DNA from: an uncultured Candidatus Saccharibacteria bacterium
GTDB lineage: Bacteria; Patescibacteriota; Minisyncoccia; Phycocordibacterales; UBA9973
Length of the DNA stretch: 64,000 nt
NCBI GenBank assembly: GCA_964450735.1
Contig: CAYVDC010000002.1
Span: 703 to 64,702 of the forward strand
Direction: 5' to 3'
The position numbers were made by a program, and so were the translations under genes. This document shows positions 1,047 through 61,457 of this stretch, one piece after another (positions within the stretch are counted from its first letter, which is position 1; each line of letters starts with the position of its first letter). The notes under the pieces are model-generated. The model was not told the origin of the DNA and made no database searches. It saw only the letters and a program-made list of their open reading frames with translations.

Positions 1047-1670
1047 GTGATTTTTAAAGATATTTCGACAGCAATCATACTCGGACTTATCGGCGGCCTG
1101 ACACCAGGACCTGTCATTATCCTTGCCCTTTCTGAAATTCTACGTTCTCCAACAAAAGGAATTTCAAACGGCACCATGTATATAGCCGTAGCAGGACTGA
1201 CTGAATTTTGTATTGGGTTTTTCCTAGTGGCGACATCATCATGGCTGAAAATTCCTCCTTTTATTTTTCATATGCTTGCTGTTGTCGGAGCTTTTCTACT
1301 GTTTTACATTGCCTTTCAACTTTACAAAATTAAACATTTTCAATACGAACAGGAAAATAAGAAAGTTGGCGTAAAACATATAATCATGCTCATGATTTTA
1401 AACGGACCAATGTGGCTATTCTGGATTTCAGTATGCCTCCCTATCGCTTTCAGTCTTGGAAATCAAATCCACTACGGGCAATATCTGTTCATCGCCATAT
1501 TCGAAGTTTCAATGGTTACGGCGCTTGCCGCAATATTCTTTAGCTTCCGACTACTTAGGAAATATCTTTCAAACGAAAAAATCGTCGGGAAAGTTTTTAT
1601 TATTCTCTCTGTCCTCATTTTCTTGATAGGATTGAGACTATTATATTCAGAAGTAAGTCTTTTGCTGTAA
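1047..1670 (+). CDS. LysE/RhtB-type amino-acid exporter family membrane protein
   Basis: 207 aa with about 6 TM segments and an N-terminal GLxPGPV motif characteristic of LysE-type translocators. Confidence 0.5.
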   Translation: MIFKDISTAIILGLIGGLTPGPVIILALSEILRSPTKGISNGTMYIAVAGLTEFCIGFFLVATSSWLKIPPFIFHMLAVVGAFLLFYIAFQLYKIKHFQYEQENKKVGVKHIIMLMILNGPMWLFWISVCLPIAFSLGNQIHYGQYLFIAIFEVSMVTALAAIFFSFRLLRKYLSNEKIVGKVFIILSVLIFLIGLRLLYSEVSLLL

Positions 1671-1671
1671 C

Positions 1672-1974
1672 ATGAAAATACTCGACCGCACAAAAGTAAA
1701 GAAATTTCAGGAAATTCCAAACGTCGGTCCGCGGATCGCCCATGATTTTCGAACGCTTGGCATCAAGTCCCCTGCCGATCTTGCAAAGCAAGACGCCATG
1801 AAGATGTATCTTAAACTAGAGAAGCTGACGAATTCAAAACAAGACCCATGCGTGCTCGACACCTTTATGGCTGCAGTAGATTTCATGCGAGGAGCAGAAG
1901 CGAAACCATGGTGGCACTACACGCCAGAACGAAAGAAATTACTTTCGAAAAAAGTAAATCTGAAATTCAAATAA
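1672..1974 (+). CDS. Helix-hairpin-helix domain protein (Cdd1-like)
   Basis: 100 aa with IPNVGPRIAHDFRTLGI, DPCVLD and PWW motifs, as recalled for Cdd1-family HhH proteins. Confidence 0.5.
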   Translation: MKILDRTKVKKFQEIPNVGPRIAHDFRTLGIKSPADLAKQDAMKMYLKLEKLTNSKQDPCVLDTFMAAVDFMRGAEAKPWWHYTPERKKLLSKKVNLKFK

Positions 1975-2009
1975 CATACCGGGCGCGGCCTACGGCCGCG
2001 CCCGGTATG
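1975..2009. terminator. Bidirectional rho-independent terminator between convergent genes
   Basis: Perfect GC-rich inverted repeat cataccgggcgcggcc-tacg-gccgcgcccggtatg. Confidence 0.7.
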
Positions 2010-2032
2010 TATAAAAATTCCTACTTTTTATC

Positions 2033-3742
2033 CTAACTGAATGTAAACGCATACGCTTCCAAACCCTTTTGCATCACTTTGATTTCAAGCACATGCTCGC
2101 TTGGACCGTCTTTTAGATCAACGAGGGTATACAACCGTGCCTCATTAAATTGCACCAATCCATTTTTTACATCGCCCCCCGCCTGATCCACGGTGATCAA
2201 TTTTCCATCAAGAAAAATCTGCGCATTTGCAGGAATGGCAGACGAAGCTACCAAGTGAACTTTTGAAGCGCTGAAATGATACCTGATCGACCCTGCGTCA
2301 CTCGATAATTCAGCATACTCAGGTTTTTCATCCCAATCTCCTGTAAGCGAATAGCGGTTCTTTGGAAGATTTCCATTTCCGCTGTATGCATATTCGCTTC
2401 GTTCGCTACCCAAATATGTTTCAGGACTTTGGTTAAAACCGCCAAGCTCTGTTTCAGGCATTTGGTTTGCACCGAGCATGACAGAGGGCTCGCCCAAGAG
2501 TTTTGCTCGTTCATTCAAAAGTTCGACTATCTTGCTTTCAGTCACATCATAATTCCCCTCGCCAATATGATCGTAAACGACATATCCATCAATATCAATA
2601 AGATACTTTCGCGGCCAATAATTATTACCATACGCATTCCACGTTCCATAATTATTGTCCAGCACTAATGGGAATTTCAAGCCGAATTGCTTTGCGGCTG
2701 CTTCAACATTTTTTTGCAAATGTTCAAAAGCGAATTCAGGAGTATGAATGCCGATAATGATTAAACCTTTATCTTCATATTTGGTATACCAATCATTGAG
2801 ATATGGAAATGTTCGCTGACAATTAATACAACTATACGTCAGTATATCGAGAAGAATTACTTTTTTACCAACATACTGACCAATGGTAATCGGCATACTG
2901 TTTGTGTTCACGTATCCGTCTGGGCGAGTAATTTCTTTGTACTTTGCAAACTGAAGTGCTTTTTGTTCAGCAGTAAGAATGCTCGTATTCTGCACCTGCT
3001 CTCCGGCAGGCACTGCTTCGCTGCTTTGCAATAATTTCTGCTCAACTTTAGTGATATCAAAAACGCCGCTACTGATCACACTAGTTTGAATTTTCTTATC
3101 AAGACCGCTCAGGACAAAGATACCAATAAGAAGAAACAAAATCCCAACACCCTTTTTAAGCCACCCCTTTGGGTCTGTAACGGTACCGAGTTTTTCAGTT
3201 ATGCGCTGACCAAGAAGAGAAATAACCAATAATATCAATCCTAATCCAAGAGCATAAGCAACCAAATAAACCAGTCCTTTGCCAAAGCTCTGTGGCAAAA
3301 CTGTGGCAAGAATTACGAAATATGTTGGCGAACAGGAGGAAAAAACCGGACCAAGAGATGCCCCGATAATCACATCTCCCCAGAAATTTTTTTTCTTATA
3401 GCCGGCTCCAAGTACTTTATTGGAACTAATTCCCATTCGCTCAACAAACGGCAGCCGTTCCCAGAGCCCCGGAAAAATCATTGTCAGCGCGACAAGAATC
3501 AAAATGCCGCCCGAAATATACTGCCAGACCTGCGGTGGAATTGTAATAAACGCCGTACTCCATTTGAGAATGAGAGTAAAGAGGACTATAGAAATAATAA
3601 GCGAACCGATGATAACATATGACTTTCGCTTATTTGATCCATCCGAAATGGATCCGCCGATAATCACCGGTAGTAGCGGCAGCACACATGGTGCAAGTAC
3701 TGTAAGCACACCTGCGATAAATGAGAGTAAGAGAAATGTCAT
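2033..3742 (-). CDS. DipZ-type thiol:disulfide protein: CcdA/DsbD transmembrane domain fused to a TlpA-like thioredoxin domain plus a C-terminal domain
   Basis: 569 aa. The N-terminus has multiple TM helices with an APCVLP motif (CcdA/DsbD family). The central part has a CINC thioredoxin motif in a WYTKY context. Confidence 0.7.
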   Translation of the reverse strand: MTFLLLSFIAGVLTVLAPCVLPLLPVIIGGSISDGSNKRKSYVIIGSLIISIVLFTLILKWSTAFITIPPQVWQYISGGILILVALTMIFPGLWERLPFVERMGISSNKVLGAGYKKKNFWGDVIIGASLGPVFSSCSPTYFVILATVLPQSFGKGLVYLVAYALGLGLILLVISLLGQRITEKLGTVTDPKGWLKKGVGILFLLIGIFVLSGLDKKIQTSVISSGVFDITKVEQKLLQSSEAVPAGEQVQNTSILTAEQKALQFAKYKEITRPDGYVNTNSMPITIGQYVGKKVILLDILTYSCINCQRTFPYLNDWYTKYEDKGLIIIGIHTPEFAFEHLQKNVEAAAKQFGLKFPLVLDNNYGTWNAYGNNYWPRKYLIDIDGYVVYDHIGEGNYDVTESKIVELLNERAKLLGEPSVMLGANQMPETELGGFNQSPETYLGSERSEYAYSGNGNLPKNRYSLTGDWDEKPEYAELSSDAGSIRYHFSASKVHLVASSAIPANAQIFLDGKLITVDQAGGDVKNGLVQFNEARLYTLVDLKDGPSEHVLEIKVMQKGLEAYAFTFS

Positions 3743-3764
3743 ATGTTAGATATCGAATTACGTA

Positions 3765-4055
3765 TTATTGCTTCATCATTGCGTCACCTTTCATTTTCAT
3801 GTCGCCATCTTGCATCATTGCATCTTTTGGCATCATGCTAGCATCCTTCATCATAGTTCCACCATCCTTTTTCATCATATCTCCCTGCATCATGGCCTCC
3901 TGCGTCATCATGGCTTTCTTCTCACCAGACTTCACGCCTGAAGCGTACGATACGGCACCTACGATAAGTACCACAACTAGTGCACCGATAATCAACGCAA
4001 TTGAATTACCTCCTTTCATTCCCATGTTCATATCTTCGTGATTCATTTTTTCCAT
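3765..4055 (-). CDS. Small membrane-anchored Met-rich protein (MMxK/D repeats)
   Basis: 96 aa with one TM helix after a His/Met-rich N-terminus. The C-terminal 55 aa consist of MMKKD / MMPKD / MMQDGD-type repeats. The DNA shows catcat periodicity. Confidence 0.5.
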   Translation of the reverse strand: MEKMNHEDMNMGMKGGNSIALIIGALVVVLIVGAVSYASGVKSGEKKAMMTQEAMMQGDMMKKDGGTMMKDASMMPKDAMMQDGDMKMKGDAMMKQ

Positions 4056-28602: not shown

Positions 28603-28709
28603 GTAGTGGCAGTATAGAGAAAAGACGCCTCTCTATCAACCCGAAAATGGTTTTTATCCTATAAACCACCCCAATTCCCCTCAGTGGCCTCTGGTGATAT
28701 ACTCTTTGT

Positions 28710-30890
28710 ATGAAAGAAAACTTCGGGAATGAGGCGCTCGGCAGATCGAAACATTTGGGAAATATGGAGATAGACGAGGAAGCAAAATTCCGTCTAGCAG
28801 CCCAAAAAATACAAAAAGGTGATTTATCAAGCTTCGCCGAATTCAGGGGATTTTTTAAAAGCGAGATAGCAGCTGAAACAAAAAAATTTGCGGAGAATCT
28901 TGATCCAATCGCGCAAGAAGAATTAGAGGCTCAAATAGACACTGAGCTCATGCTTTTTGTAAAAAATCTTGGAACGATGCGCGAACCATACATGTACAGC
29001 GTAACCAAAGAAGCGCTCCCTGGAATCATAGACAATGCGGTTCTTGCCCTTGGCAATCAAGGACAAAGAGAAGAAACTAGCCAAGAAAGAAAGTATGACT
29101 GGAAAGAGGCAGAGCTTATCGCCGAAGCTGATTTGCTTACTAGAAAATTCGAGCAATCGATCAACGCAGAAGGATTAGTAGAAAATATCGGCAACAATCT
29201 TGGGCGTAAACCCAATGGCAAATATATTTCATCATCAAAAGCATTCGATATTCTTCCCTATCTATTTGGTGAAGAAAACATGCAGTCTATCAGCAAAACA
29301 ACCGAATTATCGATTGCCCGCTTACACAATATATTCGCCGTATTCCGTGACCGTATCCGCGAAGCGCTCAGCAAAACGACGATGGCGCGACATGACCTTG
29401 ATACTGATGTCGCGCTTGAACATTTCAAAAAAAAGCTGAGACAAGAATTGAGCGATTTTCCAACTAGCTTTGAAGAGGACGAGGATGGCAGCTCGATGAG
29501 CGAAATGGATTCAGATGAGCACATTTCCTCAGAAGGAAAAGCAAGTTCCAAACAGCCAATAGAAAAAAAAGTAAGACGTGAACTAACCTTTTCAGAAACA
29601 AAAGAACGAATTCGATTGCTCGGCATTGGCAACGAGGTTAAATATAAATATTCCTACAAGCAATATGATCTGCCCAAAGAAAGCACGCTTGCATCCTTCG
29701 CAGGGACACCAAAGTATCCAGACGGTTCGATAGACTGGAAAACATTCTTTACTGAAACTCCATGGACATACGAAGATCTTAGAAAGGACATACTTTCAAA
29801 GAATATTGTTTCCGTCGCAGGTTATAGAACTAACGCTCCGTCACATAACTGGCCAGAGTGGAAATTCGTAACAGCAATGCCTGAATTTCCTAAAACTGAG
29901 GATAGCAAGCCGAACACTAATGCTTTTTTAGAGGTGAAACCAAAAGAGACTGTTACTTGGCCGACGTGGACAGCAGAAACATTGATTGCTGATATCAAGG
30001 CAAAGGGCGTTACATCAGAATCTGAATTCAAAAAAGCTCGAAGCAACGAGGGGTACTTCTGGCCAAATGCCATTACTTCAAAGAAATTCCCTGGATTACC
30101 TTTTTATCCCAACAACAGCGTTGATTGGAAAAAAGTCTTCACTGGGGAATCATGGACATACGAAGATTTGCATAAAGACATTCTTACTAAATTGAAGAAC
30201 CCAAGCAAGGATAAATACGAGTCCGCGCGCGAAAAGTATAATTGGCCGACACTGCCTACATTGATTGCCATGGAAGGGTTTCCGAAGATCGAAGAAAAAA
30301 ATGACTGGGATACATTTTACGAGAGGAAGAATTTTACTATCGACGAATTGAAAAGCGAGGTGGCAGAAAAAGGAGTCACCAATCAAAAAGGATACTTGGA
30401 CAACATGGAAAAATACGGATGGCCGTTGTTCTACAAAGTGGAAGGATTTCCTCGATACAAAGAGGGACCAGGCAATTGGTACGCGTTTTTCAATAACAAC
30501 GAAAACGTAACATTGGACAAAATGAAATCCGAAATGCTCACCTACAATATCAAGTCACACCTTGATTACGATCGCCTCTCCGAGGAACACAACTGGCCGC
30601 CTTTGGCCGTCCTGCGCAATATGCCCGACTTCCCAAAGACCCAGCAGGGCAAGAATGACTGGGATGCATTTTATGGAATTGCAAAAAAAGTAGCGCCAGA
30701 AACCTTGTTTGTAACCAAAGAAGGAATTTCATACGAAAAACTGAAGAGCGAGGTTCAACATCTGGGAATCAAAACCATTAGTTCGTACATAAAAGCAGCT
30801 GCGAATAGAGGCTGGCCATCTCTCGACGAACTCGGCGAACTAGAGGAAGTGAAAAAAATGAAAAGCTGGAATGAGTTTTTTGGAAGATAG
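28710..30890 (+). CDS. Large cytoplasmic tandem-repeat protein of unknown function (six to seven ~58-aa repeats)
   Basis: 726 aa. After residue 300 come repeats of the form DWxxFF...(W/F)TYEDLxKDI...(N/G)WPxLxxLxxMPEFPK. I could place them in no family. Confidence 0.6.
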   Translation: MKENFGNEALGRSKHLGNMEIDEEAKFRLAAQKIQKGDLSSFAEFRGFFKSEIAAETKKFAENLDPIAQEELEAQIDTELMLFVKNLGTMREPYMYSVTKEALPGIIDNAVLALGNQGQREETSQERKYDWKEAELIAEADLLTRKFEQSINAEGLVENIGNNLGRKPNGKYISSSKAFDILPYLFGEENMQSISKTTELSIARLHNIFAVFRDRIREALSKTTMARHDLDTDVALEHFKKKLRQELSDFPTSFEEDEDGSSMSEMDSDEHISSEGKASSKQPIEKKVRRELTFSETKERIRLLGIGNEVKYKYSYKQYDLPKESTLASFAGTPKYPDGSIDWKTFFTETPWTYEDLRKDILSKNIVSVAGYRTNAPSHNWPEWKFVTAMPEFPKTEDSKPNTNAFLEVKPKETVTWPTWTAETLIADIKAKGVTSESEFKKARSNEGYFWPNAITSKKFPGLPFYPNNSVDWKKVFTGESWTYEDLHKDILTKLKNPSKDKYESAREKYNWPTLPTLIAMEGFPKIEEKNDWDTFYERKNFTIDELKSEVAEKGVTNQKGYLDNMEKYGWPLFYKVEGFPRYKEGPGNWYAFFNNNENVTLDKMKSEMLTYNIKSHLDYDRLSEEHNWPPLAVLRNMPDFPKTQQGKNDWDAFYGIAKKVAPETLFVTKEGISYEKLKSEVQHLGIKTISSYIKAAANRGWPSLDELGELEEVKKMKSWNEFFGR

Positions 30891-33302: not shown

Positions 33303-35042
33303 TTACGCCACCTCTTTTTGGTAGCATCCTTCGCAATAAATCACCTCGCTCCGTAGAGGAGAATACGAAGTTTCAAATTCGTTCGGGCACGATCCAGTAT
33401 GGTCGTGGTTTTCCTGGCTGCACATACATGCACGATGCCAAAGTTTTCGCGGATTGCGCTTGCTCATGCGCGCCTGGTGACGGCATTCAAAATCCTGATG
33501 CGGAATTGGTAAATGCATTTTTCGGTAAAATTCTAGTTCTGCCTGGATGAGACGGAAATTTTTTCCGCAGGTTTCACAAATCAGGGTTTCTTTGAGTATG
33601 CCATCTGTAACCTCTTCGATCGTTTGCGGCATATCAGCGCTTTTGATGGTTTCTTTGCCAAATGTTCCAGTATTCATTTCTCGCCAATTGAATCCGCGCT
33701 CAGTGGCGACTTCTTTGGAGAGCGGGTAAAAATCCTGCGAAAGGGCTTCGTTGTAGGTAAATGGCGCAATGTCCGCTGGGAAAAATTGCCCATAGCGAGG
33801 ATCGTCTTTCATCTCGGCGTCTATTTTTGCTTTGAGCTCTTGGTATTCTTCTTTTGAATATTCCCGGTTCAAGATCATATAGTTCCCTTTGCGGATAGCG
33901 ATACAACCAAGGGCATTTGAAAGATGATAGCAGTTTTCGCAGTACTCCACTTCATTACAGTAAAAGACAAAAGCTGAATTTTTGAGCTTGCTTCCCTCGA
34001 GAGCACCCATAATATTGTATCCAAACGATGGTTTGTAGTAATAGTTATTGCAATCCATGCTGTCGATCGGGCTTTCAGTATCAGTCATGTATGAGCAGTT
34101 TTTTGCATCATAAGTATCAAACAGCAAAACACCATCATGGCAGTTATGGATATAGTCCCCTGTCACATTATTGCACTTTGTCTGAGATGAAAACTTTTTA
34201 AGTGCCTGGCTTTTTATTTTCTCAAATTCTTTTTTAGCTGCTTCAATGCTTTCATGGCTTGAGAGTATTTCTTTTTTCTTTTCCTCAAACTCTTTTTTAG
34301 AATACTGTACGTTGTAAATGGAGTTCGACATATGCCGTCCGTTGGTGCAGAAAATACAATTCTGACTGTCGCGCATGTTGTAGCAGAACAACAGTTCGCT
34401 CGAAGACTGACATTGCTCAGAGAACATGCACTTGAAGCAATTTCGTGAGTCGAGACATTCATAGCAAAGCTCTGACTCGTGCAAAAATGCACAGTCTACA
34501 CACTGTTTGTCTCGCTGGAGCAATCGCCCATACAAGCAATCTTCATTGTAATCAGCAGCAAAAATAAGATAGCAGTCTTTGTTTTCCGCCGAACCGTTGG
34601 TGTACTCGCTTCGTACGTTATTGAAAGCCATCAAGCTCATACGAGGAACGGAATGTTGCAGTTCTTTGTATTGGTCAAAAAATGACTTGAAAAAATCATA
34701 CTCTCTTCCGAAGCTTTTTGGATCCCAATTGTCGCTCCACCAGCAGGTATGACAATACACTGTGTATGGGGATTCGGGCGAATACACGGTGATCATGTCT
34801 GTTTTGCAGAGATCACACGGGCGTTTGTAAAAAGTTCGCTCATTTCGAAAAACTAGGCGATGCATCATGCGGCAATCCGGACAAAAGTTCGGAAATGGCA
34901 CATTCATTTGGGAGTAAAATATCTGATCTTCAGTGCGGATCGTGAAGTCTTTCTTGCAATCCTGGCAGTTTTTAGTCTGGGGTTCCATGTGCGGATTATA
35001 GCAAATATAGTAGAGAGAAACTTGTGTCTCTATTCGATCCAA
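33303..35042 (-). CDS. Cys-rich protein with multiple zinc-ribbon motifs flanking a central NCxxC-repeat region
   Basis: 579 aa. The N-terminus has CQDCKKDF...FYSQMNVPFPNFCPDCR and the C-terminus has CETCGKNF...FYRKMHLPIPHQDFECRHQAR, both matching the probable-zinc-ribbon pattern CxxCxxxF..FY..P.P..CxxCR. CDLCK-x17-CHTC is also present, and the centre holds (NCxxC...C...C) repeats. Confidence 0.6.
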   Translation of the reverse strand: MDRIETQVSLYYICYNPHMEPQTKNCQDCKKDFTIRTEDQIFYSQMNVPFPNFCPDCRMMHRLVFRNERTFYKRPCDLCKTDMITVYSPESPYTVYCHTCWWSDNWDPKSFGREYDFFKSFFDQYKELQHSVPRMSLMAFNNVRSEYTNGSAENKDCYLIFAADYNEDCLYGRLLQRDKQCVDCAFLHESELCYECLDSRNCFKCMFSEQCQSSSELLFCYNMRDSQNCIFCTNGRHMSNSIYNVQYSKKEFEEKKKEILSSHESIEAAKKEFEKIKSQALKKFSSQTKCNNVTGDYIHNCHDGVLLFDTYDAKNCSYMTDTESPIDSMDCNNYYYKPSFGYNIMGALEGSKLKNSAFVFYCNEVEYCENCYHLSNALGCIAIRKGNYMILNREYSKEEYQELKAKIDAEMKDDPRYGQFFPADIAPFTYNEALSQDFYPLSKEVATERGFNWREMNTGTFGKETIKSADMPQTIEEVTDGILKETLICETCGKNFRLIQAELEFYRKMHLPIPHQDFECRHQARMSKRNPRKLWHRACMCSQENHDHTGSCPNEFETSYSPLRSEVIYCEGCYQKEVA

Positions 35043-56908: not shown

Positions 56909-59290
56909 TTAGTGGTTGTTGTATACAGGCACATCCATGTCTTCGTAGTGCGGAGGCTGTGGAGCTGTATTCATGTTCTGGTTTCTCATACCGTTGTTCG
57001 CATTTGCGTGAGCGTTGTAACCGTTAGGAGCAACGTACGCAACAGGTCGGCGGTAGTTCCGTCGGAGCAAGATCGCGAGGTAAATGAGAAGCAAAAGGAT
57101 GAGGATGAGAGCGAGCCAACCAATCAAGGTTGTAGGCCAGAAACCATTTCCGAAGAGGGCCAAACCAGCAAGTGAGTTACAGTTTGTTGTGTTTCCAAGA
57201 CCATAGGCAATCGCAGTTTCCTGAGAATTGTTCACAGGATTTGTGAAAGCAATAGTAGCCTGAGCAACAACGTTATTTCGGTTGATTGCTGATCGGAGAA
57301 CGACACCAGTGATGTTCATAGAACCAGCCTGGTCCTTGATGAGCGTACCGATAGCAAGCGTAACTGAGTGGTCAGCCGCATTGTAGATACCAGGATTTGA
57401 GCTCTGGAATTCAACGTCTTTCGGCAAGAGAACCTGGAGAACTACGTTGTTCAATGTGTGGCCAGAGATGTTCTTGTAAGTAACATTGTAGTTAACGATG
57501 TTGCCGACACAAGCATTGATCTGCTGGTTATCGTTGACTGCGAGAGAGACCAAGTTTGAACCAGATCCAACTCCAGCGACGACAGTTGTGATAACTGTAG
57601 GAGGAACAACTACTGTTGCAGCAAGCGTTGAGAATGACTGATCATCTCCGTAGAATGTACCGCTTGAGTTAGTAGCGACCGCACGATAGTGGTAGACAGT
57701 GTTAGCTGAGAGGCCAGTGATCGTGTTGAAGAACGGAGCTGAGTTTACTGTACCAGCGTACTGAGACGCTGTAGTAAAGCCATAGTTCTGTGTTGTTCCC
57801 CACTGGAAGTATACCTGAGTAGCGAGTCCGCCTGACTGGACCAAGTTACCGTTCAAACGAGCGCTGTTCTGAGTAACGAGGTTTGGAGCACCAGTGTAAA
57901 CCTGAGTTGTCTGAACAGGAGCTTGAGTGCTCACTGTCAAAGACTGAACCTGTGTCTGACCGCCATTCTGACAATACGCAGTAAGCGTGTATGCCTGGCT
58001 TCCATAGATTGCTCCAGTTGGAGCTGATCCTGAGAGCGGCTGTGTATTGTAGTAATTGTTAAGGCCAGAGATTGAAACTGATGTAGCACCAGTTGTTGAC
58101 CAGTACAATGTCGATGAGCTTCCTGATGTTACCTGAGTTGGTGAAGCATAGAATGAGTTGATCGAACATGCGCTGTAGCTGTTTGCGTAAACAGAGATTG
58201 TCTGTGTAACTGGGTATCCATTCTGACAGTTTGCAGTGATTGTGTATGACTGAGTTCCGTAGATCGGACCAGTTGTTACTGAACCTGAGAGAGACTGGTT
58301 GTAATTATAGCTACCAGTAAGTCCTGAGATTGAGACAGATGTTGCACCATTGGTGCCCCATGTGAGGTTTGTTGTTCCGCCGTATGAGACAGAAGTTGGG
58401 CTCGCATTGAAGTACGAAATGTTACATGCCTGTGCTTGGTTAACAGACACTGTAGTAGTACGTGTTACCGGTGAACCATTGCTACCATATGCTGTGATTG
58501 TGTATGTAGTCGTGTTGGTAAGTGTTCCGGTAGGCTGTGATCCATTCAAGCTGTTTACATAGACGATACCACCCTGGACGATTGCTGATACACAGCCTGA
58601 AGTTGACCAGTTGATTGTTGAAGATCCGCCTGATGTTACATATGAAGGGTTAGCGTCGAACTGGTTAACCACACAAGTCTGAGCTGGAGGAGGAACTGAA
58701 TTCTGTCCAACCTTGTAAGTTACCACGACGACACCCTGGTGACAGAAGATGTCGCTTGATGAACAGTCGCTTGAATCGTGGATATCACCGATGTTCAATC
58801 CGCCATTGAAGATGTCAGTACCCTGTGTGCTTGAGAGAAGCACTGCATTGTGTCCGTAGACTTTTGCTGAAAGGTATGTGAGCGTCTGGCCCTGAGCGAG
58901 GTTTACCGTTGCAGAACCTGAAACTGACGGCGCATTGTTTGCAGAAAGAGTTCCAGTAAATGTCTGGCTGTTAACGACGCCAGTTGACTGCGGGCTCAAA
59001 GTAAACTTTGTTCCTGTTGCAGTTCCAGTACCGCTATTGTTGTAATACAACATTATCCAAACGTTATCCCCTGGCTGAACGCCTGAGATGCTTGTTGAAT
59101 AAGCTGATGGTGATGGGTTACAGCCATTACCGCCGACTCCACAGACCTGGGCCTGGACGAGCGGAAGATATGGGCTTGCGCCTGCACCAAATTGTGGCGC
59201 AGCGTGTGCGTAGCCACCAAAAGCAGCCGTAAGGGCGAAAGCCGCCGCAACGAGTGCGAATTTGATATATTTGTTCATAAATTTTTTCAT
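56909..59290 (-). CDS. Large surface protein with Ig-like repeats, an FN3-like domain and a DUF11-like domain, anchored by a C-terminal TM helix
   Basis: 793 aa with a signal peptide. Three ~85-aa repeats follow the pattern CxIxxFxAxPTxVxxGxSxTLxWxTxGATSVSISG. TVYHYRAVATN suggests an FN3-like fold. A C-terminal TM helix precedes a basic tail (LRRNYRRP). Confidence 0.6.
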   Translation of the reverse strand: MKKFMNKYIKFALVAAAFALTAAFGGYAHAAPQFGAGASPYLPLVQAQVCGVGGNGCNPSPSAYSTSISGVQPGDNVWIMLYYNNSGTGTATGTKFTLSPQSTGVVNSQTFTGTLSANNAPSVSGSATVNLAQGQTLTYLSAKVYGHNAVLLSSTQGTDIFNGGLNIGDIHDSSDCSSSDIFCHQGVVVVTYKVGQNSVPPPAQTCVVNQFDANPSYVTSGGSSTINWSTSGCVSAIVQGGIVYVNSLNGSQPTGTLTNTTTYTITAYGSNGSPVTRTTTVSVNQAQACNISYFNASPTSVSYGGTTNLTWGTNGATSVSISGLTGSYNYNQSLSGSVTTGPIYGTQSYTITANCQNGYPVTQTISVYANSYSACSINSFYASPTQVTSGSSSTLYWSTTGATSVSISGLNNYYNTQPLSGSAPTGAIYGSQAYTLTAYCQNGGQTQVQSLTVSTQAPVQTTQVYTGAPNLVTQNSARLNGNLVQSGGLATQVYFQWGTTQNYGFTTASQYAGTVNSAPFFNTITGLSANTVYHYRAVATNSSGTFYGDDQSFSTLAATVVVPPTVITTVVAGVGSGSNLVSLAVNDNQQINACVGNIVNYNVTYKNISGHTLNNVVLQVLLPKDVEFQSSNPGIYNAADHSVTLAIGTLIKDQAGSMNITGVVLRSAINRNNVVAQATIAFTNPVNNSQETAIAYGLGNTTNCNSLAGLALFGNGFWPTTLIGWLALILILLLLIYLAILLRRNYRRPVAYVAPNGYNAHANANNGMRNQNMNTAPQPPHYEDMDVPVYNNH

Positions 59291-59309
59291 ACGTGTATTG
59301 TAGCATCTT

Positions 59310-59326
59310 GTTGACTATTTGTCAAC
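59310..59326. promoter_or_regulatory. GTTGAC-N5-GTCAAC palindrome about 20 nt upstream of the surface-protein start codon
   Basis: gttgactatttgtcaac is a perfect 6-5-6 dyad. Confidence 0.3.
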
Positions 59327-59471
59327 TATGATGCACATTCTAATAATAACTCACCTCTAAGCTCTCAATCTCGAAATTCAGAGCTTGGAAATAAGGGTAG
59401 TATGTTTTTTAAGCATACTACCGCTTTTTTAATAAAAATCAAATGATTCTAAAAATTCAACAAAAAACAAA

Positions 59472-61457
59472 TTACCTGCCAACTTTTGGTGCAGTAGTTC
59501 TCATCGGAGGTCTTGCTGCATTCATCTGCTGACTACTTCCACCACCACGTTGTACATCGGGGCGCTGTTGGCGCTGTACATTCATGTTGCTAGTACCAGT
59601 TGGTTGATTTGGCGAACGCTGTTGGCGTTGCAGATCGTAACTATTGGTCTTAGGTTGGTTGTAATTAACCTGCGGCTTTGTACGATTCACATCGTAGTTC
59701 GTAGTGGTACCATGCTGAGCGTTACCCTGGTTTCCATAATTACCACGGTAATTAGCATTGTCGTAATTAGTACGTCCATTATTATTCCGTTGCTGGTCAT
59801 AGTTAGGACGATACGGACTACCTTGGTACTGCTGACCGTAATTCGGACGAGGCTGATCAGACGAGTACTGTTGGTTGTAATTAGGACTGGGCTGGTCGTT
59901 TGAATACTGCTGACTGTTCTGTGCTTGCAATTGTTCATCGCGAGCGCGGGCTTGGTCAGCAAGGTATTGTTGTACTGTACGAGTAGGCAATGTTTGTTGC
60001 GGTGCTGTTCTTTCAACAGTGCGTTGCTGGTTTGCATTCACATTCTGCGTGTTCCCATTCGAATAGCGAGTATCTACATATTTTTTCTCGTTAGAAGAAT
60101 TATATATATTTGCGCTTGCCGGACGTGAGTCAGCTGTTGTGTTTGCTTTTGCAGTTCTCGCCAAATCTATGCCTGAACTATATGGCTGCTCATCTTGAGC
60201 TGAAGCGGTAGCAGAATTTGCCAGTGATGCTGGTTGAATAGTTCTTTGCTTGGCCAATGAGTTTGCACTCAATGCGGCTGCAGCAGAAGTTCCTAGTCCA
60301 TTTGCACCATTGTTATTTTCTTTTTTGCCTGCTCCACCACTGTTATTTGCACCATCTCCAGTACCTGAATCGTTCACAGTACCATCCCCTGCTCCGCCAC
60401 CATTATCGTTTCCGGTAGGTGTAGTTACAACGGGGTGATCTCCTCCACCGCCGCCGTTATTCGCCTGTTCTCCAGAACCTCCAGTATTGTTATACAACGG
60501 AGTAGTTGGTGTTGGGCGCGGTTGGTCGGGGTGTACAACCTGCACGGTATTGTTATTGATAATATTGGTGTTGTTAATCTCAATATAGATATCAATAACA
60601 GTCTTGTTTTCAGGTGTTGCGGGAACCATCGCGCATGCGATGCCTCCTGAATTGCAACGATAGGTTGGCTGACAGCCAAAAACTGGCTGGCAAAGATTGA
60701 AGGGCATCATGTAGTAGCCTGGGCCATAGTACATTGGTTGAGTTGGAAACCAAGAACCTCCATAGTTCGTTTCGTACACTTCCTCAGTGTAGTAATTCGT
60801 AGTATAGACGTCCTGGTCATGCACAAACACCGTTTTGTCGATGTATACCGTGTCCAAGTCATGCACTACAGTAGCTGTCGGTCCAGTACGCGGCTGCAGG
60901 TCAATAATTAAATTGATGCAGCATTCTTCGTCTTTTCCGGAGTACTTTGATACGTATACCTTATTACCGTTAAATGGTGAGGTGTACTCAAGCATCGCTA
61001 CTTCGGTATAGGCAGGATTTAAAAAACAGGCAACTTTACCAGTGCTTGGATCAATACCAAGTACATACATAACGCCACCAGGTACTGTTACCAATACCCC
61101 TTTACAGTCTAATAAAATCTTCTGCGCTTGCGCCAAAGTTACATCACTTGTTATGCCGAGAAATGCCCGGTTAAAGTTAATGCAATACGCTGCTTCAGTC
61201 AGGTATTTATCGTACGATGCAACAACGGGATCCATATAACTGGTCAGGTTGTCGTTAGCAACATTTTGCATGTGCTGTGCCCAGGTAATGCCGGTCGAAC
61301 CCTTCTTTTTGAAAGGGTTAACGTGCGGACTACTCGGGTTGTACGTATAAATGTGATACCTTGTTGGCACAATTTGTGCTGATACATTGTTTTTTGCTGA
61401 TGTGCTTCCTATTGCTAATAGCAACAGAAGCAATTTGAAAAAGAATTGCTGTTTCAT
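59472..61457 (-). CDS. Secreted protein with a ~300-aa globular N-domain and a ~350-aa Asn/Gln/Tyr/Gly-rich low-complexity C-terminal region
   Basis: 661 aa with a signal peptide. The N-domain holds several Cys pairs (CCINL, CQPVFGCQPTYRCNSGGIAC). The C-terminus has NYNQQY-like repeats (SQQYSNDQPSPNYNQQYSSDQPRPNYGQQYQGSPYRPNYDQQ). Confidence 0.55.
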   Translation of the reverse strand: MKQQFFFKLLLLLLAIGSTSAKNNVSAQIVPTRYHIYTYNPSSPHVNPFKKKGSTGITWAQHMQNVANDNLTSYMDPVVASYDKYLTEAAYCINFNRAFLGITSDVTLAQAQKILLDCKGVLVTVPGGVMYVLGIDPSTGKVACFLNPAYTEVAMLEYTSPFNGNKVYVSKYSGKDEECCINLIIDLQPRTGPTATVVHDLDTVYIDKTVFVHDQDVYTTNYYTEEVYETNYGGSWFPTQPMYYGPGYYMMPFNLCQPVFGCQPTYRCNSGGIACAMVPATPENKTVIDIYIEINNTNIINNNTVQVVHPDQPRPTPTTPLYNNTGGSGEQANNGGGGGDHPVVTTPTGNDNGGGAGDGTVNDSGTGDGANNSGGAGKKENNNGANGLGTSAAAALSANSLAKQRTIQPASLANSATASAQDEQPYSSGIDLARTAKANTTADSRPASANIYNSSNEKKYVDTRYSNGNTQNVNANQQRTVERTAPQQTLPTRTVQQYLADQARARDEQLQAQNSQQYSNDQPSPNYNQQYSSDQPRPNYGQQYQGSPYRPNYDQQRNNNGRTNYDNANYRGNYGNQGNAQHGTTTNYDVNRTKPQVNYNQPKTNSYDLQRQQRSPNQPTGTSNMNVQRQQRPDVQRGGGSSQQMNAARPPMRTTAPKVGR

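Follow-up and report, generated by a model that had tools for sequence, protein, structure and literature searches.

What might a bacterial protein do that consists largely of a regular repeat, and in which other proteins does such a repeat occur? Here, we address this question for an open reading frame (ORF) at positions 28710..30890 on the + strand of a 64-kb stretch of contig CAYVDC010000002.1 (64,000 nucleotides; henceforth the window), which comes from an uncultured Candidatus Saccharibacteria bacterium. Genomes of the candidate phyla radiation (CPR, or Patescibacteria) are small and rich in unannotated proteins. The ORF encodes 726 amino acids (aa), and from residue 289 onward its product is an array of seven tandem units. 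These units belong to a family whose usual place is the C-terminal tail of helicases in CPR bacteria; in the protein studied here (the query) they follow an orphan N-terminal region. The reading we prefer, with a probability of about one half, is that the query would be a cytoplasmic, non-enzymatic adaptor or regulator with a nucleic-acid-targeting tail of the helicase type.

The repeat array

Landmark motifs, DW..F(F/Y), W-T-Y-E-D-L, N-W-P, and (M)PEFPK, recur every ~58-70 residues of the query between about aa 290 and its C-terminus. The original prediction, made from the letters of the DNA, had described such tandem repeats and had listed the motifs DW..FF, WTYEDL, NWP, and FPK, all of which are found in the protein. 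It had also let the unit begin at DW, and this start had to be moved. In homologous arrays the W-T-Y-E helix stands at the start and DW..F(L/F)G(R) at the end; since these arrays start and end in this way, the natural unit runs from the basic residues before W-T-Y-E through the W..F(L/F)G motif. In this register there are exactly seven complete tandem units of 57-70 aa each, which fill aa 289-726 (438 residues) and hold 17 of the 18 Trp residues of the protein. A profile hidden Markov model (HMM) built only from the units of other proteins, with the query left out, recovers seven domains with a total of 244 bits, each at an E-value between 1e-9 and 1e-17, and the presence of a tandem array is thereby borne out. 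The ORF and its units are listed here with the independent E-value (i-E) from this external HMM and, where a structure model covers them, the predicted local distance difference test (pLDDT) from AlphaFold.

28710..30890, + strand: whole ORF from the ORF listing, ATG start, 726 aa, 83.9 kDa, isoelectric point (pI) 5.6, no Cys
29574..29756, + strand: repeat unit 1, aa 289-349, RRELTFSETKERIRLLGIGNEVKY...PDGSIDWKTFFTE; i-E 1.1e-9
29757..29936, + strand: repeat unit 2, aa 350-409, TPWTYEDLRKDIL...NWP...MPEFPK...NAFLEV; i-E 1.2e-17
29937..30146, + strand: repeat unit 3, aa 410-479, extended N-terminally by 7 aa; i-E 4.7e-9
30147..30323, + strand: repeat unit 4, aa 480-538; i-E 1.1e-13, pLDDT 91-98
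30324..30497, + strand: repeat unit 5, aa 539-596, its loop (FPRYKEGPGNW) shortened; i-E 1.6e-13
30498..30677, + strand: repeat unit 6, aa 597-656; i-E 4.9e-16, pLDDT 89-95
30678..30887, + strand: repeat unit 7, aa 657-726, with 13 aa inserted N-terminally and a C-terminal SWNEFFGR; i-E 1.7e-17 for aa 670-726

Could such an array be a recent low-complexity expansion, or the ORF a mis-called one without selected function? The full-length protein is a singleton among 5.8 billion clusters at 90% identity, its word-index search returning only itself, and its N-terminal half is an orphan, both of which would suit this explanation. Yet Tandem Repeats Finder reports no tandem repeat at the DNA level in the ORF. 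The units share on average 25% identity with their siblings (best 26-41%) and 39-48% with units of other proteins. As they are nearer to the units of other proteins than to one another, the array must be old, and on this comparison of sequences we take it to be ancient and not a recent expansion. The core positions are conserved across the 116 units of the family described below, and V/I13, Y26, W42-P43, W66, and F69 are kept in six or seven of the seven units of the query. The ATG-started reading of 726 aa is the longest available in this frame, and the GC content at the three codon positions (GC1/2/3) follows a coding-like pattern in the N-terminal as well as the repeat half. Finally, units 4-6 give a confident AlphaFold model. 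For the repeat region, an expansion or mis-call is already refuted, and for the protein as a whole we give this explanation next to no credence.

An identical protein is encoded on one public contig only (NCBI/Logan, sample SRR12404947), the word-index and HMMER searches yielded no full-length orthologue anywhere, and a scan of a genome contig collection with all 726 residues gave no relative. Within the window no ORF other than 28710..30890 has the repeat. None of the curated resources (Pfam, NCBIfam, PADLOC, PHROGs, and the sequences of the PDB) matches the protein, and the PDB sequences do not match the profile of the repeat family either; the Pfam model KA1 reached 15 bits against a cut-off of 23, which was taken as chance. 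Neither a signal peptide nor a transmembrane segment was found, the maximum 19-aa Kyte-Doolittle window being 0.84, in agreement with the cytoplasmic location proposed from the start.

A repeat shared with CPR helicases

Relatives of the array were sought by an exhaustive HMMER search of 1.84 billion representative sequences (E ≤ 0.001). The unit is carried by 31 other protein clusters, 21 of them found at E ≤ 1e-10, and all matches are confined to aa ~290-726 of the query. From the 32 proteins (the query and the 31 others), 116 units align cleanly. Their long form, carried by the query, has 61 aa with ...MPEFPKNPDGSNDWDTFLGR, and their short form 54 aa with ...PEWKGWDDFLGR; the two are related with an hhalign probability of 99.8%. 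The word-index search retrieved a single fragment (P0002) when started from an alignment of the seven units and nothing when started from an alignment of 115 units.

According to Pfam scans, the full-length relatives are mostly helicases of superfamily 2 (SF2; ResIII, DEAD, and Helicase_C domains) in which 3-8 units form the C-terminal tail. Among solved structures, the helicase part comes closest to translocases of double-stranded DNA, namely 7clg ("putative helicase"), archaeal XPBII, RAD25, RadD, and the R subunit of type I restriction enzymes. Other arrangements exist as well. In P0027 (1161 aa; NCBI/ENA contig), two units lie N-terminal to an SNF2 ATPase that is fused to a class I methyltransferase, and in P0018 and P0020 four units each follow a common N-domain of about 280-350 aa, for which Pfam, PADLOC, and PHROG gave no match. 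When genomes were scanned with the P0002 pattern, five loci were obtained and all five belong to CPR bacteria (a member of the Gracilibacteria, two Saccharibacteria, a Patescibacteria group bacterium, and an uncultured bin). The same scan of metagenomes yielded 11 loci, nine of which have the same helicase N-part directly upstream of 4-7 units. At one metagenomic locus (L013, 1333-3818) the helicase-repeat gene is spread over two overlapping stop-to-stop frames (1333-3099 and 3048-3818), reflecting either a frameshift or pseudogene or else an assembly error.

How close are these tails to the array of the query? The XPB/RadD-like helicases of CPR bacteria (P0003, P0006, P0007, P0009, and the proteins of loci L005-L007 and L011-L020) carry the same unit, with per-unit identity of up to 48%, in arrays of the same length (4-8 units) and with the long form containing PEFPKNPDGSNDW common to both. 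The two differ in what precedes the array, which is an N-terminal ResIII/DEAD/Helicase_C motor of ~500 aa in the helicases and a 250-aa orphan region with an acidic linker in the query, and in their surface, as the units of the query are short of much of the conserved polar surface and of the net positive charge. In CPR bacteria, then, the standard C-terminal tail of the XPB/RadD-like helicase is a recurrent repeat of about 55-61 aa. No curated model covers this tail. The original prediction had held that the repeat resembles no known class. This stands insofar as no curated model matches the query, and it falls insofar as the same unit recurs in 31 other clusters, mainly as helicase tails.

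The genes around the helicase-repeat genes are housekeeping genes of information processing. In two Saccharibacteria (L005, 307-9188; L006, 48-8948), the order is rpoC-dnaG-rpoD-helicase-GT2, with the helicase gene directly downstream of rpoD and in the same orientation. At another locus the neighbours are RNase R, TrmD, rpoB, and rpoC, and at a further one YchF, Sua5, and LeuRS. The linkage to rpoC, dnaG, and rpoD hints at a housekeeping role of the helicase that is possibly tied to transcription or replication.

Relation to INT_rpt and other small modules

The family is not entirely without a named relative. From the query, HMMER reached one protein, P0032, with an E-value of 1.1e-4 against the whole library of 1.84 billion. 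P0032 is the sole protein among the relatives scanned that passes the Pfam model INT_rpt (PF14882, "Integrase repeat unit", formerly PHINT_rpt), scoring 48.4 bits against a gathering score of 26.5. When the family profile was built without P0032 and compared by hhalign with the five repeats of that protein, the probability was 97.9% (E 4.8e-13, 50 of 54 columns); with only the long form in the profile it was 95.8% (E 7.8e-9). Likewise, the family HMM finds all five repeats of P0032 with 86 bits. The likeness extends to the layout of the unit. In both families, tandem units of ~55 aa open with an amphipathic helix (T-x-E-E-L-K-x-x-V), which leads into a turn of the type G-I-K/T-S; helix 2 then contributes an invariant Tyr, and after a segment with Pro the unit closes on W-x-x-F-(L/F)-G-(R/K). 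In contrast to INT_rpt, the long form of the query has an insertion of ~8 aa (FPK-NPDGSN-DW) and shows W-P in place of G-A-P, and the carriers are CPR helicases in the one family and integrases in the other. Since PF14882 is blind to the consensus of our family and to the relatives scanned other than P0032, the family is a divergent branch that the Pfam model, as it stands, leaves out. By profile comparison, then, it is a distant branch of the INT_rpt superfamily and not a member as Pfam now defines it. The novelty claimed for the repeat was to give way to a match with a characterised family; what was found lies halfway, INT_rpt being a named family that is itself functionally uncharacterised.

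INT_rpt has been counted among the repeat families without a structure (PMC8078820); its other appearances in the papers found are confined to virome pipelines, where PF14882 is one of the HMMs used to mark an "integrase" (PMC11502894, PMC12044158). However, PF14882 describes an accessory repeat whose relatives sit on helicases, and a match to it need not mean an integrase. This is a practical caveat for the "integrase" calls made in viromes with this model.

The same use of PF14882, together with the name of the family, could be taken to indicate that the repeat belongs to mobile elements or anti-phage defence and that the query gene is a remnant of such an element. The helicase relatives also have partial PADLOC matches to PbeA, to type IV and type I restriction enzymes, and to BrxH and DpdE; these matches span the generic SF2 core only, and the query has no PADLOC or PHROG match at all. 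An integrase domain was found neither in the query, nor in the relatives scanned, nor in the neighbouring genes, and no integrase, nuclease, or methyltransferase gene adjoins the query. A scan of a viral contig collection with P0002 gave two matches, both spurious and located inside a phage portal gene, and the helicase versions of the repeat reside among housekeeping genes as described above. We therefore consider an origin in defence or mobile elements improbable.

Other short modules come to mind as well. HA (Pfam PF03457) is a short module, predicted to be helical, that recurs in repeats at the termini of bacterial helicases and is assumed to be a nucleic-acid binder. In concept, a short helical repeat attached to helicases, it is akin to the family of the query. 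The PF03457 model nevertheless had no match in the query, in its single units, or in the relatives scanned at E-values of up to 10, and its motifs differ from those of the family, a difference that the original prediction had pointed out. The first 25 residues of the unit (L-T-x-E-E-L-K-x-E-V-x-x-K-G-I-K-S-S-x-x-Y) are similar by eye to the SAP/HeH pattern, which with Rho_N belongs to the helix-extended-helix motifs that bind nucleic acid. Apart from a faint match of Rho_N in one relative (E 0.025), neither a significant sequence match to SAP, HeH, or Rho_N nor a significant Foldseek match in the PDB or BFVD was obtained, and weak Pfam matches to SAP, Rho_N, HA, and INT_rpt were not consistent across the consensus sequences and 44 three-unit segments.

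Predicted structure of the unit

A structural view of the array was obtained by AlphaFold modeling of units 4-6 (aa 480-657), for which an alignment of 44 sequences from three-unit windows of the family was supplied. The model is helical, with a mean pLDDT of 89.3 and a predicted template-modelling score (pTM) of 0.64. In each modelled unit, a first helix spans ~11 residues, a second spans 7-11, and a third is short; the FPK...DW insertion folds into a small hairpin, and W..FF makes up a helix of one turn. In unit 5 the helices are predicted with confidence, and pLDDT drops to 63-74 at the loop and junction. We are confident of the unit as a predicted small helical module, in which three helices and a short hairpin would be capped by the W..F(L/F)G turn. 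By comparison, a single-sequence AlphaFold run of the full protein reached a pLDDT of 39.8 and is unusable as a model. In BFVD, the three-unit model came nearest, without reaching significance, to A0A2H4UVX6 (E 0.63, probability 0.44), which is a DEXDc helicase from Bodo saltans virus. A similar tail may be present on the helicases of giant viruses.

The N-terminal region and linker

What, then, does the array carry in place of a helicase? Two features precede the first unit.

28710..29459, + strand: orphan N-terminal region, aa 1-250, net charge -8, pI 5.3, probably helical; no homologue, low-confidence model
29460..29573, + strand: acidic linker rich in Ser, Glu, and Asp, aa 251-288, pI 4.25; assigned from composition and a single-sequence pLDDT of 22-31

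For the first 290 residues there is no homologue among the 1.84 billion representatives and no match in Pfam or NCBIfam. The single-sequence model places helices in aa 21-248 (N-terminal pLDDT 32-74) and disorder in aa 250-340. An N-terminal region that is mostly helical, as originally proposed, is compatible with this model, whose pLDDT allows only low confidence.

Several identities for this region were considered and rejected. A GD..F motif and stretches resembling a helix-turn-helix (HTH) gave the impression of a sigma factor. However, Sigma70_r2 and Sigma70_r4 do not match at E ≤ 10, and Smith-Waterman comparisons gave z-scores of -0.1 and 0.2 with two RpoD proteins of Saccharibacteria and 1.4 with an approximate sequence of E. 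coli RpoE. Nor does the region look like a degenerate helicase, as the N-terminal 295 aa obtained negative bit scores against a profile of nine helicase N-parts. Negative bit scores were likewise obtained with the N-domains of the family members P0018, P0020, P0008, and P0005.

The genomic neighborhood

The window is an ordinary piece of chromosome with genes for PolA, a PilB-type ATPase, and GlnII. Upstream of position 28710 and divergent from it lies an Ada-like gene of the AraC-HTH/MGMT type. Downstream and co-directional are genes for a signal-peptide-bearing YgaP-like_TM (DUF2892) protein, a 180-aa Peptidase_C39_2 protein, and a short-chain dehydrogenase/reductase (SDR), the list of co-oriented neighbors given in the original prediction being correct in this respect. 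Gaps of about 30-90 bp lie between the four co-directional genes and contain no terminator-like site on the + strand, which makes co-transcription possible.

This arrangement invites a further explanation, in which the query would represent an unprecedented class of repeat tied to the downstream genes, for example as the substrate or cofactor of peptidase-linked export. The tight spacing of the genes and the absence of a curated family for the 726-aa protein speak for it. The C39-like protein, on the other hand, is a stand-alone domain and not an ABC exporter, and the query has no leader peptide, no Gly-Gly-type context for C39 cleavage, and no Cys. The repeat is moreover common to 31 other clusters and related to INT_rpt. 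Most directly, genes for DUF2892, C39-like, SDR, and Cys-rich proteins are absent from all 17 loci that have members of the repeat family. The suggestion that the architecture might co-occur with the C39-like peptidase and the Cys-rich protein thus fails, and since the proteins are also functionally unrelated, there is no evidence for a functional block. The explanation is largely refuted, and we regard it as very improbable.

The 107-bp divergent intergenic region (28603-28709) contains an extended -10-like box, TGATATACT, which ends 7 nt before the ATG at 28710, and has no Shine-Dalgarno sequence upstream of that ATG. On its opposite strand, a promoter-like site (TTGATA-17-TATACT) is located just upstream of the start of the Ada-like gene. 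Judging from these signals, both the ORF and the Ada-like gene might be leaderless. Beyond the downstream genes, 33303-35042 on the - strand encodes the Cys-rich protein, an orphan of 579 aa with many CxxC pairs that is convergent on the SDR gene. NCBIfam and PADLOC gave no match for it, and zf_Tbcl remained below threshold (17.9 bits against a cut-off of 24). At 56909-61457 on the - strand, two large ORFs (793 and 661 aa) without NCBIfam matches lie upstream of the divergent gene for the PilB-type ATPase.

What the array may do

The identified partner domains of the repeat are all DNA enzymes, namely the XPB-like helicase, SNF2, and the methyltransferase, with integrases for INT_rpt. It follows that the module is most likely a device for tethering or targeting its carrier to nucleic acid. 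From the nature of these partners, the ligand would probably be DNA. In the query, the helicase would have been replaced by the orphan acidic helical N-domain, which is joined to the array through the acidic Ser-rich linker, and the protein could act as an adaptor or regulator that brings this N-domain, or a binding partner of it, to the ligand of the helicase tails.

Several results weigh against this adaptor reading. The units of the query have a mean charge of -0.1, in comparison with about +1 to +4 in most relatives. The polar positions that are best conserved in the family are largely lost: the G-I-K-S-S turn is eroded, with its K kept in two of the seven units and its second S in none, and D67, G71, and R78 each survive in about two of seven. 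With most of these polar positions and the mild positive charge of the relatives lost, the ligand may differ from that of the helicase tails; to judge by its sequence, then, the query may have changed its ligand. The link to INT_rpt is also weaker from the side of the query than from that of the family. Its seven units alone reach 73.8% over 21 columns when compared with INT_rpt repeats by hhalign, the HMM search in the reverse direction gives 11 bits, and PF14882 finds neither the query (E ≤ 1), nor single units (E ≤ 10), nor the family consensus, nor the 44 three-unit segments. Furthermore, Foldseek produced no analogue of the three-unit model that would speak for a DNA-binding fold (best E 9 in the PDB and 0.63 in BFVD), and the N-domain yields no functional clue. 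Binding of nucleic acid by the repeat family is proposed here from its partner domains.

It is at this point that a serious rival has to be weighed, in which the array would be a protein-protein scaffold that docks its carriers on, for instance, RNA polymerase or the replisome, and a protein without a helicase, such as the query, would be a competitor or adaptor for the docking site. The near-neutral repeats of the query and its loss of the conserved K-S-S, D, and G-R positions speak for such a role. Conservation is strongest at aromatic or hydrophobic residues (W, Y, F, P), a trait shared with many repeats that bind peptides, and the helicase-repeat gene follows immediately after rpoC-dnaG-rpoD in two Saccharibacteria and lies near rpoB/rpoC elsewhere. 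Nevertheless, conserved aromatics are most simply understood as the hydrophobic core of a module of roughly 55 aa, the rpoD neighborhood is found in one lineage only while other loci differ, and none of the identified partner domains departs from the theme of DNA enzymes. For these reasons we hold the scaffold to be unlikely, if worth serious attention, and retain the nucleic-acid-targeting adaptor as the preferred reading.

A more specific proposal can be made on the basis of the long form. The long "FPK" form could define an undescribed CPR-specific fold, with no solved analogue, for the recognition of nucleic acid or a partner. As a targeting tail it would serve an XPB-like helicase that occurs throughout the lineage and, in Saccharibacteria, is linked to rpoD. 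The query would then be a trans-acting paralogue of this tail and, as a decoy, an anchor, or a regulator, would compete for the ligand of the helicase through a diverged binding surface. We put this forward as speculation and think it rather doubtful.

Significance for the repeat family

What is new here is the long "FPK" form and a new architecture; the kind of repeat, in its uncharacterised state, was known already, and no categorically new system is involved. For the query itself the gain is modest, consisting of a helicase-tail array placed on an orphan domain, with a function proposed from its relatives. For the family it is larger. The repeat is invisible to Pfam and NCBIfam, and the alignment of 116 units is a seed for a new family or clan entry. 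Its confidently predicted fold, which finds no match in the PDB, makes it a target for DNA-binding and structural work. Should the query indeed turn out to be a trans-acting paralogue of the helicase tail, these minimal genomes would have yielded a first regulator of this kind.

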